Source: Polyangiales bacterium
Lineage (GTDB): Bacteria; Myxococcota_A; Polyangia; Polyangiales; Ga0077539
Reading direction: 5' to 3'
DNA: 64,000 bases
NCBI GenBank assembly: GCA_044229975.1
Contig: JBGARZ010000001.1
Location: 640,001-704,000, forward strand
The notes beneath the pieces are model-generated. The model had not been told where the DNA came from. It saw only the letters and a list, made by a program, of their open reading frames with translations, and ran no database searches. A program made the translations under genes and the position numbers. Below are positions 27,694 to 35,511 of the stretch, one piece after another. Position 1 is the stretch's first letter; every line of letters starts with the position of its first letter.

Positions 27694-29163
27694 CTACCGA
27701 TCGCTCGCGAAGACCACCTTCCCCAGCCGCGCCTCCGCCTCCGTCGCCGCCTCGCGGTCCTGCGCCGCGGCCGCGTCGTCGGCCTCCATCTCGGCGAACC
27801 GATACTGCACCTCGCCCGCCTCGCTCACCACCGCGTCGCCCCCGAGCTCCGCCACGCGCACGGACACCTCGCGCGACGTCGGCTCGCGCCCCGTCGCCAC
27901 GCGCACCGCCGTCCGCAGCGCGGCGTCGTCCACCGCCTCGCCCTTCGCGGCGTGCGTGACCACCTCGCGCAGCACACCCAGCCGCGCCTTCTCTTCGTCG
28001 AGCGCCTGCTGCTCTCGCCGACGCCACAGCGCCCGTGCGATGGGCAACACGAACAGCGCCGCCGAGAACACCACCGGAACCAACCCCAGCACCAGCGGAA
28101 CCCCACCCGGCACCGGAACGTACGGCTGCGTACGATCGAGCATGCGCGCGAGGTTCTCAAGCGTGACGTCGTTGGCGATGGCCCACAGACCCGCCAGCAG
28201 GTTGAAGCCGTTGAGCGCGGCGATGCCCGCGTTGGCGCCGCCGCTGTTGCCCGTGAGCGGTGGCAGCACGGTGGGGCGCTGCCACGCCGGGGCCGGTCGA
28301 GCCGTCGGCGCGCCGTCTGACGCAGCGGTCTTCCGCAGCGCTTCGAAGCGGTAGTAGATGCCGCCGCTCTCGCTGACCTCGACGGTTCCGTCGTGGTCGA
28401 GCATCAGCCTCGCCATCAGCGGGTCGGCCTCCGAGCGCGGGAGACCCGTCACACGCATCACGTCGGCGAGGGCGATGCGCCCCTTCAGCGCGCGCACCTC
28501 GGCGAGCACACGCGCCCTCTCCGCGTGGGGATCGGGCGCCGTCGCCGGAGGTCCCCACACGAAGCGGTTGACCTTCTCGTAGAGCGGAACCTCCTCCTCT
28601 TCGGCCGCCGCCCGCATGCGCCGCTGCGCGCGAGGCGAGACCACGCCGTAGTCGTCGTAGCGGTGGTAGGCGAGCGGCGAGAACGGGTGAAACGTCCACC
28701 ACGCCGCCTCGGCGATCAGCCGCAGCAGGCCACCAATGATCGAGGAGCCCGGTCCGTCGTCGCGGTCGCTGCCGCGCCCCGAGGAGAGCGCGATGCCGAT
28801 GGCGACGAAGGCCAGCGCGTAGCCGACGATCGCGATGAGCAGCCACGCGCGCACCAGCAGCCGCCCCGCCGCCGCGAGCACCGAGCCCGCGCGCGCCATC
28901 CAGCGCCCGACGGTCTCCTTCGTCTCCCAGGGCTTCGTGAACCCGTGCGGAAACACATGCACGAGGTCGCCCGCCTCGGTCACCCGATACTGCCCACGGT
29001 ATTCGCTCGCGAGCCACGTGAGGCCGGCCTCCGCGTCGCGTAGCGCGAGGCCGCTCCGCACCGAAGCGTCGGCCACCGTGAGCAACGGAAGCGGTTGGGG
29101 CAGCGTGCGTCGCAGCACCGCGGCCGCGGCGGCGGGGTCCATCGAAGAGGGGGCGTCAGGCAT
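27694..29163 (-). CDS. Membrane protein with three repeated modules (At5g03900-like, cyanobacteria/plastid family)
   Basis: TVADA...GL..A...L...G...V(T/S)E.G...(F/Y).F module three times; TM segments; FVWGP; LTGN. Confidence 0.7.
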   Translation of the reverse strand: MPDAPSSMDPAAAAAVLRRTLPQPLPLLTVADASVRSGLALRDAEAGLTWLASEYRGQYRVTEAGDLVHVFPHGFTKPWETKETVGRWMARAGSVLAAAGRLLVRAWLLIAIVGYALAFVAIGIALSSGRGSDRDDGPGSSIIGGLLRLIAEAAWWTFHPFSPLAYHRYDDYGVVSPRAQRRMRAAAEEEEVPLYEKVNRFVWGPPATAPDPHAERARVLAEVRALKGRIALADVMRVTGLPRSEADPLMARLMLDHDGTVEVSESGGIYYRFEALRKTAASDGAPTARPAPAWQRPTVLPPLTGNSGGANAGIAALNGFNLLAGLWAIANDVTLENLARMLDRTQPYVPVPGGVPLVLGLVPVVFSAALFVLPIARALWRRREQQALDEEKARLGVLREVVTHAAKGEAVDDAALRTAVRVATGREPTSREVSVRVAELGGDAVVSEAGEVQYRFAEMEADDAAAAQDREAATEAEARLGKVVFASDR

Positions 29164-29259
29164 CGGAGGTCCGGGCCCGATCGTGCCCGCTCCCGGGCTG
29201 CGAAGCCCGTGCAACCGCCTTGACACTGCGTTCGCCCGCGAGATAGGTCGGCCATGGCG

Positions 29260-29280
29260 TTGTGAGAACGGCTCCCACAA
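29260..29280. promoter_or_regulatory. Palindromic operator TTGTG-N11-CACAA (Fur-like), site 1
   Basis: TTGTGAGAACGGCTCCCACAA lies between TTGACA (29220) and the AGGAG RBS. Confidence 0.65.
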
Positions 29281-29317
29281 TCAGCCGACGCCCCTTTCCG
29301 CCTCAGGAGAATTGTTG

Positions 29318-31450
29318 ATGCACTTTGCGCCATCGCTCACCGAGGCCGTCACGGCGCTCGGCCGACCGCTCTCCTCGTTGCTCGACCCGAGCACGCGCGT
29401 GTTCGGGCCCTTTCTGCTGGGCGCGGCGGGCATCGCGCTCGTCGCGTTGGTGCTGCGCGGGATGAGCCTCGGCCTGGCCGCGCGCGAGCTGCTGTCGCCG
29501 CGGGTGTGGCTGCACCGATCGGCCCTCGCGGACTACCGGCTCATCGCCGCCCGCGCCGCGCTGCGGGCGCTCCTCGTCGGCGTGCGCGGTGTGTCGACGC
29601 TGGTGGTCGCGGCCCTCGTGATGTCGTGGCTGCGGCGTCACCTCGGGCTGCCCGGCGTGCACGCGTCGGCGGTGCTGGTGGGCGCGGCGTTCGTGCTGGC
29701 GGCCTTCGTCGCGGAGGACGCGGTGCGCTTCGCACTGCACCGGGTGATGCATCGGGTGTCGTGGCTGTGGGAGTTTCACAAGGTGCACCACTCGGCGGAG
29801 GTGCTCACGCCCTTCACCCTCTACCGAACGCACCCCGTCGAGGCGGCCATCAACGGCGCCGGCAACACCCTCGCCGTCGGCCTCGTCACGGGCCTCTTCG
29901 CGTGGACCTTCGGGCCGTCCATCCGCGCCTGGGAGATCTTCGGCGTCGACGCCATCGGCTTCGTGTGGACCCTCTGCGGCGCCAACCTCCGCCACTCGCA
30001 CGTCTGGCTCTCGTACGGCCCGCGCGTCGAGCGCTTCTTCCTCAGCCCCGCCCAGCACCAGGTGCACCACAGCACCGACCCCCGCCACGTCGATCGCAAC
30101 TTCGGCACCGCGCTCTCCCTCTGGGACCGCCTCGCCGGTTCGCTCTACGTGACTTCTCCCCAGCCCGAGGCGCTCACCTTCGGTCTGCCCGCGGGTGAGG
30201 CAGGCCCCGCGCACACCGTCGGGTCGCTGCTGCTCTCGCCCTTCGCCGCCGTGGCCCGTCGCGCTCGCGCCGTGATCGCTCCGCGCCCGTCGCCGGTGCG
30301 CCTCGGGATCGCCCAGCGCTTCGCCCTCGTCGCCGCCGCGATGGTGATGTCCGCCTGCACCAAAGAGGAGCCCTTCGACCGCGTCACGCTCCTCCAGGCC
30401 TTCGGGCGTTGCACCGTCACGACGTACGACCAGTTCCAGGCGACGACGCCGGGGCTCGTGGCCGCGACGACCGCCTACGCCGCCGCGCCGACCGACGCCA
30501 ACCGCGCCGCCGCTCGCACGGCGTGGGAGCGCGCCATCGACCTCTGGGAGCAGGCCGAGCTGCTGCGCTACGGGCCCGCGGCGACCTTCGACACCATCGG
30601 CGGTCAGAACCTCCGCGAGGGCATCTACGCGTGGCCCGACGTCAACCGCTGCCTCATCGAGCAGCAGGTCGTCTCGCGCGCCTACGACACGGCGATGTTC
30701 AGCAGCCTCTCCACCAGCACCCGCGGCCTCGCGGCGCTCGAGTACCTGCTCTTCTACGAGGGCGCCGACAACGCCTGCCAGGCCACCGACGCCATCAACG
30801 CGATGGGAACCTGGGCGGCCCTCTCGCCCGACGAGCTGCGACAGCGCAAGGCCGCGTACGCGCGCGCCATCGCCGTCGACGTCGAGGCCAACGCGCAGCG
30901 CCTCATCGCGGCGTGGCACCCCAACGGCTTCCAGAACCAGATCGAGACCGCCGGGCTCGGCAGCTCGCTCTTCGCGACGCAGCAGGTCGCCTTCAGCGTC
31001 ATCGCGGAGGGTGCGTTCTACCTCGACACCGACGTGAAGGACCTGCGCCTCGGGCGCCCGCTCGGCCTCGTCAACTGCACCACGGGCACCTGCCCCGGCG
31101 CGCTCGAATCGCAGTGGGCCGACCGCGGCCGCGAGCACCTCCGCAACAACATGCGCGGCCTGCGCACGCTCATGGAGGGCTGCGCCGCGGGCAACAACCA
31201 GGGCTTCGACGACCGCCTCGAGGCCGCCGGCGCGGGTGCGCTCGCGACGCAGCTGCGCGCCGACCTCGACGCCGCCGACGCCGCGATCAACGCCATCCCC
31301 GGCACCAGCCTGCGCGATGCGCTCGCCAACAACCCCGCCTCGCTGATGCGCGTGCACACCGCCATCAAGGAGCTCACCGACTTCCTGAAGATGGAGTTCT
31401 CGACGACGCTCCAGATCACCTCGGAGCGGGTCGCTGGGGACAACGATTGA
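29318..31450 (+). CDS. Sterol desaturase/fatty-acid hydroxylase fused to an imelysin-family domain
   Basis: His boxes HRVMH, HKVHH, RHSH, HQVHH; internal lipobox VMSAC (Cys 30356); ARTAW, YAWP, RGLAALEYLLF, ESQWA, GDND end typical of imelysins. Confidence 0.85.
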   Translation: MHFAPSLTEAVTALGRPLSSLLDPSTRVFGPFLLGAAGIALVALVLRGMSLGLAARELLSPRVWLHRSALADYRLIAARAALRALLVGVRGVSTLVVAALVMSWLRRHLGLPGVHASAVLVGAAFVLAAFVAEDAVRFALHRVMHRVSWLWEFHKVHHSAEVLTPFTLYRTHPVEAAINGAGNTLAVGLVTGLFAWTFGPSIRAWEIFGVDAIGFVWTLCGANLRHSHVWLSYGPRVERFFLSPAQHQVHHSTDPRHVDRNFGTALSLWDRLAGSLYVTSPQPEALTFGLPAGEAGPAHTVGSLLLSPFAAVARRARAVIAPRPSPVRLGIAQRFALVAAAMVMSACTKEEPFDRVTLLQAFGRCTVTTYDQFQATTPGLVAATTAYAAAPTDANRAAARTAWERAIDLWEQAELLRYGPAATFDTIGGQNLREGIYAWPDVNRCLIEQQVVSRAYDTAMFSSLSTSTRGLAALEYLLFYEGADNACQATDAINAMGTWAALSPDELRQRKAAYARAIAVDVEANAQRLIAAWHPNGFQNQIETAGLGSSLFATQQVAFSVIAEGAFYLDTDVKDLRLGRPLGLVNCTTGTCPGALESQWADRGREHLRNNMRGLRTLMEGCAAGNNQGFDDRLEAAGAGALATQLRADLDAADAAINAIPGTSLRDALANNPASLMRVHTAIKELTDFLKMEFSTTLQITSERVAGDND

Positions 31451-31520: not shown

Positions 31521-33827
31521 ATGAACACAACCCGCCGCCTCGGCCTTCTGGCGCTCGTCGTCTCCGGCGCCACCGCCCTGCCCGCGTCCGTCCTCGCGCA
31601 GCCCGTGCCCGCCAACCCGCCGCCCGCCGACCCGCCGCCCGCCGACCCGCCTCCGCCCGCGAGCCCGCCTCCGCCCGCCGACCCCGCGTCGCCGGACACG
31701 GGCGAAGTCCTCCCCAGCCAGGAGTACTATGTGCGGGGCCGGCGCACGCTCGACCAGGTCCCCGGCAGCCACACGCTCATCCGCCGCGAGGACATCCAGC
31801 AGCTCGCCCCGCAGAGCGGCGGCGACGTCCTGCGCACCGTCCCCGGCGTCAACGTCGTGAGCGAAGACCCGATGGGCCTGCGGCTCAACATCAGCATCCG
31901 CGGCCTCGACCCCAACCGCTCGCGCAAGGTGCTCGTCCTCGAAGACGGGATGCCCGTCTCGCTCAACCCCTACGGCTCCCCCGAGCTCTATTACACGCCG
32001 CCCATCGAGCGCATGGACCGCGTCGAGGTCGTCCGCGGCAGCGGCCAGATTCTCTGGGGTCCGCAGACCATCGGCGGCGTCATCAACTACATCACGCGCG
32101 AGCCGCCGCGCCGCCCCACGGCGGGCGTCGACCTCCGCTACGGAACCTACGGCTACCTCCTCGCGCAAGCCTTCGCGGGCGCCACGCAAGGCCCCATCGG
32201 GTGGCGCCTCGACGTGATCCACCGCCGCTTCGACGGGCCGCGCAACCTCAACCTCGCGCTCACGGACATCGCCGGTCGGCTGCGGCTCCAGATCTCCCCG
32301 CGCTCGATCGTCCAGCTCAAGCTCAACTACTACGACGAGTCGTCGAACGCGACGTACCTCGGCGTCACGTCGCCGCAGTTCGCCCTCGACCCGACCATCA
32401 ACGTGGCCGGCAACGACCACTTCCAGATCCGCCGCTACGCGCTCGCGCTCATGCACCAGTTCACCGCGTCGCCGACGGTGATGCTGCGCACCAACGTCTA
32501 CGCCTACCAGACCAACCGCGCGTGGCGCCGCCAGGAGTACGACCGCAGCGACACGGGCGCGGACTACGAGCGCGTGTGCGACCCGATGGGCCGCTGCGGC
32601 GCGCCCGGCGCCTCCGGCATCGCCCCCACCAACAACGGCGGGAGCGTCTTCCTGCGTCGCACCGCGGCCACCAACGACCGCTCCTTCGACGTCTTCGGCG
32701 TCGAGCCCCGCCTCACCTGGAACTGGACCCGCGGCACCGTCTCCGGCGAGCTCACGACCCTCGTGCGCTTCCACTACGAGAGCGCCAACGACGCGCGCTT
32801 CATCTCGTCGTTTCCGACCGGGCGCTCGGGGGTGCCCATCGCCGACGAGATCCGCAACGGCTACGCGCTCGCCGCCGCGGTGCAGCATCGCTTCGGCTTC
32901 AACGACCGCTTCTTCGTCACGCCGGGCGTGCGCTTCGAGGGCTTCTGGAGCAACCGACGCGTGACGCGCGAGTCGTTCATCGACCCGATGGGTCAGACGG
33001 CCTACCGCGACGTCGACGTCTTCGGCAGCTCATCGAGCGCGGCCCTCATCCCGGGCCTCGGCCTCTCCTACCGCTTCGGCTCCGCGCTCACGATCTTCGC
33101 GGGCGTGCACCGCGGGTACGCCCCGCCGCGCACCAAGGACGCCGTCTCCCCCGCGGGCGCCAACCTCCAGCTCGACCCCGAGCTCTCCTGGAACACCGAG
33201 CTCGGCTTCCGCACGCGCCTCGGCCGCTGGCTCAACGCCGAGGTCGCGGCCTTCCACCTGGAGTTCGAGAACCAGATCATCCCCCCGAGCGAGTCGGGCG
33301 GCGCGGTCTCGGCCGCGGGCTTCAACACCGGCCACAGCCGCCACGTCGGCCTCGAAGGCAGCCTCACCTTCGACGTCGCACCCGTGTTTCAGCGCGGCGC
33401 GTCGACCTTCTCGCTGCCGCTGACGGTCAACTACACCTATCTCCCCGTCGCGGACTTCGTGGGCGGGCTCTTCGGCGGCAACCGCCTGCCGTACGCGCCC
33501 GAGCACATGCTCTTCGCGCAGCTCCGCTTCGTGCACCGCGCGGGCTTCTCCGCGCAGGTGAGCGCCACCTACGTGGCCAGCCAGTTCGCCGACAAGGAGA
33601 ACACCGTCGCCCAGTCCGTCGATGGCGTGGTGGGACGCCTCGACGGCTACCTCACCATCGACGCTCGCGTCGGCTACACGATCCGCGTCCCCAACCTCAC
33701 GGTCTACGTCGCGGGCCGAAACCTCACCGACCAGATCTACGTGGCCAATCGCGCCCCGCAAGGCATCCAGCCCGCCGGGTGGCGACAGGTCTTCGTCGGC
33801 CTGGAGTGGTCCTGGCCCCGTTCGTAG
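31521..33827 (+). CDS. TonB-dependent receptor, FecA-like
   Basis: Signal peptide; plug VLRTVPGV...NISIRG...VLEDG...VEVVRGSG...GGVINYIT; LDPELSWNTELG; NRLPYAP; RNLTD. Confidence 0.95.
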   Translation: MNTTRRLGLLALVVSGATALPASVLAQPVPANPPPADPPPADPPPPASPPPPADPASPDTGEVLPSQEYYVRGRRTLDQVPGSHTLIRREDIQQLAPQSGGDVLRTVPGVNVVSEDPMGLRLNISIRGLDPNRSRKVLVLEDGMPVSLNPYGSPELYYTPPIERMDRVEVVRGSGQILWGPQTIGGVINYITREPPRRPTAGVDLRYGTYGYLLAQAFAGATQGPIGWRLDVIHRRFDGPRNLNLALTDIAGRLRLQISPRSIVQLKLNYYDESSNATYLGVTSPQFALDPTINVAGNDHFQIRRYALALMHQFTASPTVMLRTNVYAYQTNRAWRRQEYDRSDTGADYERVCDPMGRCGAPGASGIAPTNNGGSVFLRRTAATNDRSFDVFGVEPRLTWNWTRGTVSGELTTLVRFHYESANDARFISSFPTGRSGVPIADEIRNGYALAAAVQHRFGFNDRFFVTPGVRFEGFWSNRRVTRESFIDPMGQTAYRDVDVFGSSSSAALIPGLGLSYRFGSALTIFAGVHRGYAPPRTKDAVSPAGANLQLDPELSWNTELGFRTRLGRWLNAEVAAFHLEFENQIIPPSESGGAVSAAGFNTGHSRHVGLEGSLTFDVAPVFQRGASTFSLPLTVNYTYLPVADFVGGLFGGNRLPYAPEHMLFAQLRFVHRAGFSAQVSATYVASQFADKENTVAQSVDGVVGRLDGYLTIDARVGYTIRVPNLTVYVAGRNLTDQIYVANRAPQGIQPAGWRQVFVGLEWSWPRS

Positions 33828-33878
33828 CCTGACGCCCCGTCACGCGACGGGTGCCCCACGATGCCCCGAATTCGATGA

Positions 33879-33899
33879 TTGTGGTCTTCACTTTCACAA
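33879..33899. promoter_or_regulatory. Palindromic operator TTGTG-N11-CACAA (Fur-like), site 2
   Basis: TTGTGGTCTTCACTTTCACAA in an AT-rich patch, overlapping a second palindrome TCACAA-N5-TTGTGA. Confidence 0.65.
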
Positions 33900-33924
33900 T
33901 TGGTTTGTGATAGCCAACCCGGCC

Positions 33925-35511
33925 ATGAAGCTCCGGCACACCTCTTCTTGGCGTTCGATCATCTCCCTCTGCTCGCTCGGCCTGCTGCTCGCGGCCGGCT
34001 GCGACGACACCGCCGCGACGACCGACGCCGCGACCGACTCCGGGGTCATCAACGACACCGGCACGACCCCGACCGACGTCGGCACCCAGCCGACCGACGC
34101 GGGCACCCAGCCGACCGACGTGGGCACCCCGACCGACGTGGGCACCCAGCCGACCGACGTGGGCACCCCGACCGACGTGGGCACCTCCCCGACCGACGCG
34201 GGCACCCCGGCCGCGACGCCGCAGATCGTCCCGGTGTCGGCCACCGGCCACGACCGCTTCTTCGGCGTGACCTATGAGCCCGGCGGGAGCTTCTACGCGG
34301 TGGGCGTGGTCTCCAACGGCAACGTCGCCGCGACGGCCGACTTCGAGACCGTGGTCGCGAAGTTCACCCCGGCGGGCGCGCTCGACACCACCTTCGGAAC
34401 CGGTGGCTACGCCCGGCGCAACCTCGCGGTGGGCCTCGGCGGCGAGGTCGCCCGCGGCATCGTCGTGCAGGCGAGCGGCAAGATCGTCGTCGTCGCCACC
34501 GTCGAGCACGCCGGCGCCACCGACCCTCGCGACCGCGACATCGCCCTCATCCGCTTCAACACCGACGGAACCGTCGACTCCACCTTCGGCACCGCGGGCG
34601 TGGTCACCCTCGACCTGAGCGCGGGCGAGGTCGTCGGCACCAGCTACGTCGCCGACTCCGCCTGGAGCCTGCGCAACTACCCCGGTGACCGCCTCGTACT
34701 CAGCGGCTCGCAGAAGCGCTCGGGCGCCACGGACAGCGACTTCGTGGTCGTGCGCCTCACCACCGACGGCGCGCGCGACACCACCTTCGGCACCAACGGC
34801 GTCGCGTCCGTGGACATCAACAACCGCAACGCCAGCGCGCGCGGCCTGACGGTGCTCGCCGACGGAAGCATCCTCGGCGGCGGCTACATGGAAGAGGGCG
34901 GCGTGACCAACCCGGTGGTCTTCAAGCTCACCGCGGCGGGCGTGCTCGACACCTCGTTCAACACCACCGGCATCTTCGCGCGCCCCGTGCTCGCGGCGGT
35001 GACCGAGGTCTATGGGACCATCGCCCAGGGCGCCAACGTCGTGACCGTGGGCTACGGCCGCGGCGCCACCACCGACGCGGGCGTCCCCAGCATCGACATC
35101 GTCTCGCTGCGCCTCTCGGCGACGGGCGTGCTCGACACCACCTACGGCAACACCGGCGCCACCGGCGCGGCGCAGGTCGACTTCATGGGCCAGAGCGACC
35201 AGGCCCGTAACCTCATCGGCCTCCCCGACGGCCGCACGCTGTACGTGGGCGGCGCGCGCCCCACCGCGTCCAACGTCAACGGCATGTTGGGCGTCCTCAC
35301 CGCCGGTGGCATGCCCGACGCCACCTTCGGGACCAACGGCCTCCGCACCTTCGACTTCGGCGGCGTGGGCGACTTCTTCTGGGACGTCGCCATCAACCCG
35401 GCCGGCACCCGCGCCGCTGTCGTCGGCGTCCGCGGCGTGGCCGTCCCCGCGGCCGACGCGGGCGTGAGCACCGAGAACGACGACGGCGTCGTCTACGTCC
35501 TCCCGCTCTGA
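33925..35511 (+). CDS. Delta-60 repeat beta-propeller lipoprotein
   Basis: LAAGC lipobox; repeated G.LDTTFGT.G motif; VQASGKIVV. Confidence 0.9.
   Translation: MKLRHTSSWRSIISLCSLGLLLAAGCDDTAATTDAATDSGVINDTGTTPTDVGTQPTDAGTQPTDVGTPTDVGTQPTDVGTPTDVGTSPTDAGTPAATPQIVPVSATGHDRFFGVTYEPGGSFYAVGVVSNGNVAATADFETVVAKFTPAGALDTTFGTGGYARRNLAVGLGGEVARGIVVQASGKIVVVATVEHAGATDPRDRDIALIRFNTDGTVDSTFGTAGVVTLDLSAGEVVGTSYVADSAWSLRNYPGDRLVLSGSQKRSGATDSDFVVVRLTTDGARDTTFGTNGVASVDINNRNASARGLTVLADGSILGGGYMEEGGVTNPVVFKLTAAGVLDTSFNTTGIFARPVLAAVTEVYGTIAQGANVVTVGYGRGATTDAGVPSIDIVSLRLSATGVLDTTYGNTGATGAAQVDFMGQSDQARNLIGLPDGRTLYVGGARPTASNVNGMLGVLTAGGMPDATFGTNGLRTFDFGGVGDFFWDVAINPAGTRAAVVGVRGVAVPAADAGVSTENDDGVVYVLPL
34069..34207 (+). 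repeat. 18/21-bp coding tandem repeat PTD(V/A)GT(Q/S)
   Basis: About 7 copies of CCGACCGACG(T/C)(G/C)GGCACC forming a lipoprotein stalk. Confidence 0.9.

Follow-up and report, generated by a model that had tools for sequence, protein, structure and literature searches.

Within the window analysed here, which is the whole stretch of 64,000 nucleotides, one gene joins a membrane hydroxylase of the type filed as 'sterol desaturase' to an imelysin, and it raises the questions of whether this fusion is real, how its two halves would be separated and what the hydroxylase contributes. The gene is a single open frame of 710 codons on the forward strand (29318 to 31450). The surrounding stop-to-stop frame is longer, with an ATG at 28835, and homology starts only at 29318; the uninterrupted frame described in an earlier sequence-only reading was confirmed. 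Pfam searches detected FA_hydroxylase (PF04116) at residues 127 to 274 (E 9.5e-25; 88 bits versus a curated cut-off of 31) and Peptidase_M75 (PF09375) at residues 367 to 688 (E 6.5e-39; 134.6 bits versus 23.5), with the parts arranged as fatty-acid-hydroxylase domain, Arg-rich linker, short hydrophobic stretch, Cys347 and imelysin. An AF2 model of the whole chain had a mean pLDDT of 88, with both domains confident and residues 321 to 350 uncertain. A 798-codon frame on the opposite strand was rejected as a GC-rich shadow, every family and homologue match being on the forward strand.

The idea that a sequencing or assembly artefact deleted a stop codon between the hydroxylase and the imelysin has already been refuted and now carries practically no weight. 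Among the matches listed (the best 120 of 207), 85 of 120 homologues contained both domains and 81 were near-full-length fusion clusters (counted by eye) with 35 to 91% identity to the query; the named carriers were Myxococcales, Polyangia and Kofleriaceae. Matches were found in 17 of the 31 genomes searched from the window's family, the fused frame being present in 16 while the 17th ends at a contig end. Public sequencing runs also contained the junction in frame: a 151-base contig from run X1, which may be the source sample of the window, matched 30206 to 30356 with zero differences and zero gaps, and contigs of relatives in runs X11 and X15 spanned the junction with indels that add up to multiples of three. 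The searches for the two-domain architecture and for a stop codon in relatives and reads, both proposed in the sequence-only reading, therefore came out in favour of the fusion. One of these 16 genomes (G021; L010/L023) had a frameshift late in the imelysin, after about residue 623, due to sequencing error or decay. At the level of the phylum, 74 of 251 genomes gave a match, and this imelysin usually has a gene to itself, with most open frames near 400 codons.

Table 1. Positions in the window of the fusion gene's parts, its upstream signals and the genes that follow
Feature	Positions	Strand	Basis
TTGACA, likely -35 element of the operon promoter	29220..29225	+	sequence
Imperfect palindrome, 7-1-7 core at 29263-29277; candidate Fur-type operator	29260..29280	+	position shared with relatives
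Ribosome-binding site AGGAG (29305-29309) and ATG start codon	29305..29320	+	anti-SD duplex energy -7.4
Membrane His-box di-metal hydroxylase/desaturase domain, residues 1 to about 320	29318..30277	+	PF04116
Basic, indel-rich linker; putative n-region of internal signal	30242..30319	+	alignment of relatives
Putative h-region F335-M344 and lipobox M-S-A/C347	30320..30358	+	Cys invariance in 43 fusions; anatomy of 86 junctions
Imelysin-like domain, GxxxxE type; predicted mature lipoprotein of 364 residues	30356..31450	+	PF09375
TonB-dependent receptor	31521..33827	+	PF07715 and PF00593
Delta-60 repeat (DUF5122) protein, likely lipoprotein	33925..35511	+	TIGR02608, PF17164; start inferred from sequence

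The hydroxylase domain has the complete set of His-box metal ligands (H141/H145, H154/H157/H158, H172, N223/H226/H228 and H247/H250/H251), its His boxes lying where the sequence-only reading had placed them. These His/Asp/Asn ligands were 99 to 100% conserved in 154 subfamily members (91% for H228), a conservation that is partly circular, the loci having been fetched with two His-box patterns. An AF2 model of the N-terminal domain alone reached a pTM of 0.83, and its best fold match, Scs7p (4zr1), was weak (Z 5.1, rmsd 5.0, 175 aligned; Foldseek E 3.7). An atlas search returned PF04116 clusters only. The label OlsE was rejected, as NF052566, the sole NCBIfam match of the hydroxylase, gave 38 bits against a cut-off of 475.

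For the imelysin domain, Foldseek searches with the AF2 model retrieved 4ecg, ICMP (7xrx) and IPPA (3pf0) with E values of 2e-7 to 6e-7, 3pf0 giving the best target TM-score (0.76). The domain has conserved cysteines and a C-terminal G-D-x-D tail, and carries GLAALE at residues 470 to 475 (30725 to 30742). Membership of the ICMP, IrpA and EfeO families was rejected, as the GxHxxE motif is missing. The replacement of GxHxxE by GLAALE was correctly read from the sequence and is not a novelty, GxxxxE being a described imelysin variant in the accessible part of Xu 2011 (PMC3143127). By its motif and its modelled IPPA-like fold the domain fits the IPPA/PA4372 family, an assignment based on motif and fold and not on clustering against that family. 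The same accessible text reports no binding of haem or ferric ion by purified PIBO or IPPA, and states that the genomic partner of imelysins is almost always an EfeB/DUF1111 peroxidase. Elsewhere in this genome a second system forms a separate operon of a GxHxxE imelysin, a DHOR gene and a second imelysin (G000:C32:27522-31052), with a related TonB receptor about 9 kb beyond it (about 40.1 to 42.2 kb); a fourth imelysin match is present at C36:431007-431765.

Between the two domains, the stretch RFALVAAAMVMSA-C ends at Cys347 (30356 to 30358). The lipobox that had been noticed about 345 residues into the chain was therefore found, its cysteine being invariant in 43 of 43 aligned fusions, with the Pro308-Cys347 linker as the most variable stretch. 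Junctions could be parsed for 86 of 89 proteins. All 86 lacked charge in the 11 residues that precede the cysteine, 82 had G/S/T/A at -1, and the n-region had a median charge of +3. Pro308 and the cysteine were 26 to 62 residues apart, leaving aside a mis-parsed row with a value of 94. As judged from sequence, the junction has the anatomy of a lipoprotein signal, namely a basic n-region, an uncharged h-region, a small residue and an invariant cysteine, at residue 347 of the chain and not in the N-terminal position of such signals. The window's own box (MSA/C) departs from the strict consensus at -3. This consensus was matched by 21 of the 86 fused junctions and by 6 of 25 stand-alone relatives (parsed from 27 loci), the median h-region hydropathy being 2.35 in the former and 2.53 in the latter. 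As the lipoboxes of the stand-alone relatives are equally loose, the junction appears to be the ordinary signal of the imelysin, now located within a longer chain. Both lspA and lgt are present in the genome, with several lgt-like genes.

The imelysin was one of several partners of this hydroxylase. Among the 120 matches listed, 18 were hydroxylase-TonB-receptor fusions and 5 were fusions to Fe3+-binding proteins of the FbpA/FutA kind, the fused binding proteins matching FbpA/FutA structures with an E value of 1e-47. The signal type tracked the partner (by eye): a Cys lipobox before imelysins and Ala-ended, Cys-free junctions of the signal-peptidase-I type before TonB receptors and FutA. The TonB-receptor fusions are about 1,000 to 1,250 residues long (P0098-P0121, L032, L062, L114, L130, L153, L194, L199-L209, L255), and about 20 frames of this length, part of them checked, were present among 69 places in a class search. 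More distant members were fused to creatininase-family domains via a signal-like or membrane segment (P0198, P0213, P0234, P0244, P0245, P0253, L178), and in two more fusions (P0133, P0139) an internal lipobox was followed in one case by a protein of no clear family and in the other by a solute-binding protein. At least four kinds of downstream partner are thus fused to the same hydroxylase subfamily, and in every mapped locus the fused partner was the next gene. In a tree of 154 rows, for which 60 of 112 unfused rows were kept at random, the label changes needed were 4 for imelysin, 6 for receptor and 4 for FutA; a single clade of imelysin fusions was rejected in a test on 44 hand-picked rows (p-AU 3e-5), the trees being unrooted, so that repeated gain and later splitting look alike. 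Members of the subfamily would represent different steps in the formation of a polyprotein, from genes still apart through fusions that retain the internal start to fusions that have lost it.

The sequence-only reading had left the choice between a cut at the internal cysteine and a second in-frame start. For this gene a cut is favoured on the sequence evidence, a second start being well supported only in the FutA fusions. We consider it probable that the precursor is made as one chain, that Lgt lipidates Cys347 and that LspA then cuts, leaving the hydroxylase in the inner membrane and freeing the imelysin as a lipoprotein. The starting point, one frame encoding both domains and conserved in relatives, is observed. 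The basic linker and the known topology of Scs7p suggest that the hydroxylase tail ends in the cytoplasm, so that the h-region would form an extra membrane helix threading the imelysin outwards. Such a fusion may have arisen through loss of the stop codon that separated the hydroxylase from its neighbour. Since the partner carries a signal that is cleaved off once export is complete, the joined form would have been tolerated, and the partner's start codon could then have decayed in many lineages. In favour of cutting, the anatomy of the junction is kept although its length and sequence vary, and the partner in the TonB-receptor fusions (3 of 14 with no start codon within the linker) is an outer-membrane barrel, which could not function as long as it stayed joined to a protein of the inner membrane. 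We found no paper on an LspA cut behind a polytopic domain or on an internally cut lipoprotein, in a search that misses most subscription journals.

In the alternative reading of a nested in-frame gene, most of the imelysin would come from a second start within the linker and carry a normal N-terminal signal, the long frame being secondary. The FutA fusions fit this arrangement clearly. In those from marine Alphaproteobacteria and metagenomes (L044, L053, L060, L068 and 21 more) all 25 had an internal ATG, which lay at Pro+19 to +21 in 23 of them, and in 20 a start codon of some type came with a fair ribosome site; these fusions likely hold a nested gene giving extra FutA. An ATG with a ribosome site was also kept in six imelysin fusions (L007, L014, L022, L102, L185, L197), and the window's linker has in-frame GTGs at 30251, 30272 and 30296, which lie 35, 28 and 20 codons before the cysteine. 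These GTGs lack a ribosome site (anti-SD duplex energies of +1.9, -1.5 and +1.2) and are not conserved in close relatives. While stand-alone genes had an ATG 12 to 40 codons before the cysteine in 23 of 25 cases, fused loci had one in only 12 of 28, at scattered positions (11 of 28 with the anchor Pro corrected in L006 and L188), a difference with a Fisher p value of 1.6e-4 that is overstated, several loci being close kin. Some start-type codon was present in the linker of 21 of the 28 fused loci, 9 of 28 with a fair ribosome site; the other 7 had no ATG, GTG or TTG after the conserved Pro, and L003 and L013 had none even when 6 codons before the Pro were added. Linker Met residues occurred in 24 of 86 proteins, which is at the level of chance (20.4 expected). 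Translation from 29318 runs through without a stop, which obliges the cell to deal with a full-length chain in any case, and a nested start is an improbable main source of the imelysin in this gene. It is similarly improbable that no cut occurs and that the h-region is a permanent anchor tethering the imelysin in the periplasm, perhaps lipidated, in the manner of EfeU-EfeO fusions. Such fusions exist, GxxxxE imelysins are mostly predicted to be periplasmic (accessible part of PMC3143127), residues 326 to 345 were modelled by AF2 as a helix, with low confidence, and no precedent for internal LspA cleavage was found in the literature searched. Against a permanent anchor, the stretch is short and weakly hydrophobic (19-residue hydropathy of 1.64), an anchor has no need of an invariant cysteine preceded by a small residue and the sister fusions to outer-membrane barrels must be separated. 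Lipidation and cutting at Cys347 thus remains the preferred reading.

Genomic loci of the subfamily were examined as the best 80 of at least 532 related stretches in species genomes, many of them marine. A same-strand gene for an imelysin, a TonB receptor, a DUF4856 protein, FutA or FutB was present within 7 kb in 64 of these 80 loci and missing in 16; in metagenomes a same-strand partner was found in 57 of 80 loci, many of which are short. The genome's 7 other PF04116 genes were all without such neighbours. The commonest order was DUF4856, imelysin, receptor and hydroxylase (32 loci), the hydroxylase being mapped alone in 36 loci. In most loci the first gene of the cassette encodes a DUF4856-like exported protein (a cluster of 47 loci, L021-L100); it had no solved relative and no NCBIfam family, and DUF4856 was not found in the literature searched, most subscription journals being outside reach. 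The cassette spans Pseudomonadota, Myxococcota, Bdellovibrionota and Nitrospirota in several gene orders, with cultured carriers that include Colwellia, Pseudoalteromonas and Thalassotalea. The hydroxylase subfamily therefore belongs, by genomic association, to a cassette made up of a DUF4856 protein, an imelysin and a TonB receptor, or of FutABC. No paper on the fusion of a 'sterol desaturase' with an imelysin or on the cassette was found in a search that misses most subscription journals. The sequence-only reading had treated the fusion as a Rosetta stone for a partnership with the imelysin. The tie of the hydroxylase to genes of an iron-uptake type was upheld and its specificity for the imelysin was not: at least four kinds of partner occur, in the mapped loci always as the next gene, and the fused forms are not one clade. 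Because the hydroxylase is fused to several next-gene partners, the Rosetta-stone logic points to the cluster rather than to the imelysin.

In the window the closest solved relative of the receptor is FecA (PDB E 1e-39), with 169 bits for the FecA model, far below its cut-off of 1100. A complex prediction for the receptor (113-768) with the imelysin (21-364 of the mature part) scored 0.02, which has no bearing either way. The delta-60 protein accompanies the fusion in Polyangiales, its cluster being present in 6 of 80 loci. An AT-rich stretch at 33870 to 33915, before the delta-60 gene and in otherwise GC-rich DNA, is a possible second regulatory site with a poor match to the Fur consensus. 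On the other side of the fusion a divergent gene (27694 to about 29163, reverse strand) encodes a membrane protein of about 490 residues without a Pfam or NCBIfam match.

Upstream of the fusion gene, hexamers of the TTGAC/TTGAA type were found in 14 of 16 fusion loci that head an operon and in none of 10 internal ones. A promoter scanner made no call on the window, being silent on the TTGACA because the -10 element is poor. Behind these elements, Fur-like 7-1-7 boxes, scored against the Fur consensus, beat 95% of shuffles in 12 of the 16 operon-heading loci versus 1 of the 10 internal ones. The window's copy is degenerate (6 mismatches, 26% of shuffles) and is not significant alone, while relatives have much better boxes in the same place. 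Of 45 regions lying upstream of a DUF4856 gene, 20 scored better than shuffled sequence against the Fur consensus, and Fur-family genes are present in the genome. From these sequence patterns the cassette would often be under a Fur-like box, which suggests iron regulation.

The function of the enzyme is the least certain step. The earlier proposal that the 'sterol desaturase' is a component of iron uptake was borne out in so far as it lies beside iron-uptake-type genes in most genome loci, and failed as an imelysin-specific role. Tentatively, the enzyme could be the cassette's cytoplasm-facing redox step on an imported iron ligand, replacing the di-haem DHOR/EfeB partner usual with imelysins. 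The separate imelysin-DHOR-imelysin operon counts against such a replacement, because a DHOR protein could be supplied in trans from there. A rival reading, also compatible with cleavage, is a conventional OlsE-like hydroxylase of membrane lipids that is under the same control as iron uptake, remodels the envelope and is no part of uptake itself. Characterised members of the fatty-acid hydroxylase family act on lipids, the only NCBIfam match is OlsE, even if far below its cut-off, the variety of fusion partners speaks against a single dedicated physical partner and more distant relatives are located in polysaccharide or secondary-metabolite contexts. Against lipid remodelling, the gene is kept in the cassette across four phyla and several gene orders, and no lipid-synthesis gene cluster recurred in 4 or more of the 80 loci. 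The redox step is favoured over lipid remodelling, which we regard as rather unlikely; a sensor or other role makes up the rest. The accessible parts of PMC1698941, PMC7190382, PMC11069385 and PMC3790847 contain no mention of the subfamily and no expression link to iron, and the organisms of PMC7190382 may not carry the cassette. A 'sterol desaturase' of Caulobacter is reported as cold-induced (PMC8552747), and no tie to this subfamily was found.

Two claims taken jointly, that Lgt and LspA run on a lipobox 350 residues inside a polytopic protein and that the precursor brings to light a widespread and so far undescribed cassette for iron acquisition (DUF4856 protein, imelysin and TonB receptor, or FutABC) with a His-box di-iron inner-membrane step filed as 'sterol desaturase', are put at slightly under an even chance. 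As lipoprotein prediction presumes an N-terminal signal, precursors with internal signals are missed. The gene offers a clean test of Lgt and LspA on an internal lipobox, for which the family supplies natural controls in its junctions of the signal peptidase I as opposed to the II type and in fusions that have or lack the internal start, and a common bacterial 'sterol desaturase' subfamily moves into a likely iron-uptake cassette.

Among known systems, IPPA/PA4372 shares with the window's imelysin the fold, the GxxxxE motif, a lipoprotein signal and an iron-uptake-type context, as far as the accessible part of PMC3143127 goes; here the signal is internal, and a TonB receptor and the hydroxylase take the place of the adjacent, upstream GxHxxE imelysin-DHOR pair, no DHOR being present in the window's operon. 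EfeUOB and PA4370-PA4373 (IcmP/IrpA-DHOR) likewise combine an imelysin domain with a redox-type partner and Fur-type control, the latter two being candidate features in the cassette; here, however, no EfeU permease was seen among the recurring neighbours, a DHOR gene occurred in 2 of 160 loci and an operon of that kind lies elsewhere in the genome (G000:C32:27.5-31 kb). With the PF04116 superfamily (Scs7p, ERG3/ERG25, OlsE) the hydroxylase has the His-box metal site in common, and probably the membrane fold, its top structural match being Scs7p at a weak score, whereas it forms a distinct bacterial subfamily tied to transport genes and far under the OlsE cut-off.

The arrangement of a polytopic domain, an internal signal and an exported domain, present here, is that of LtaS and FbcH. 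LtaS of Staphylococcus aureus has five membrane helices followed by an outer domain that is cut off by the signal peptidase SpsB (accessible part of PMC4065355). Within the scope of that text it differs in being one enzyme that sheds its outer domain through a type I peptidase, with no lipid anchor. Signal-peptidase cuts behind membrane domains are already known, and no paper on an internal-lipobox version was found in the literature searched. FbcH of Bradyrhizobium japonicum, reportedly described by Thony-Meyer and colleagues in 1991, is said to be a cytochrome b/c1 precursor. Its single gene reportedly encodes an inner-membrane protein with several helices, then a signal-like linker inside the chain and then an exported protein, the products being separated after export as proposed here; the cut lies at a site of the signal-peptidase-I type, both halves staying in one complex. 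In the present gene, by contrast, the junction is a lipobox, which would be processed by Lgt and LspA, and one N-terminal module has been joined to a variety of unrelated partners.
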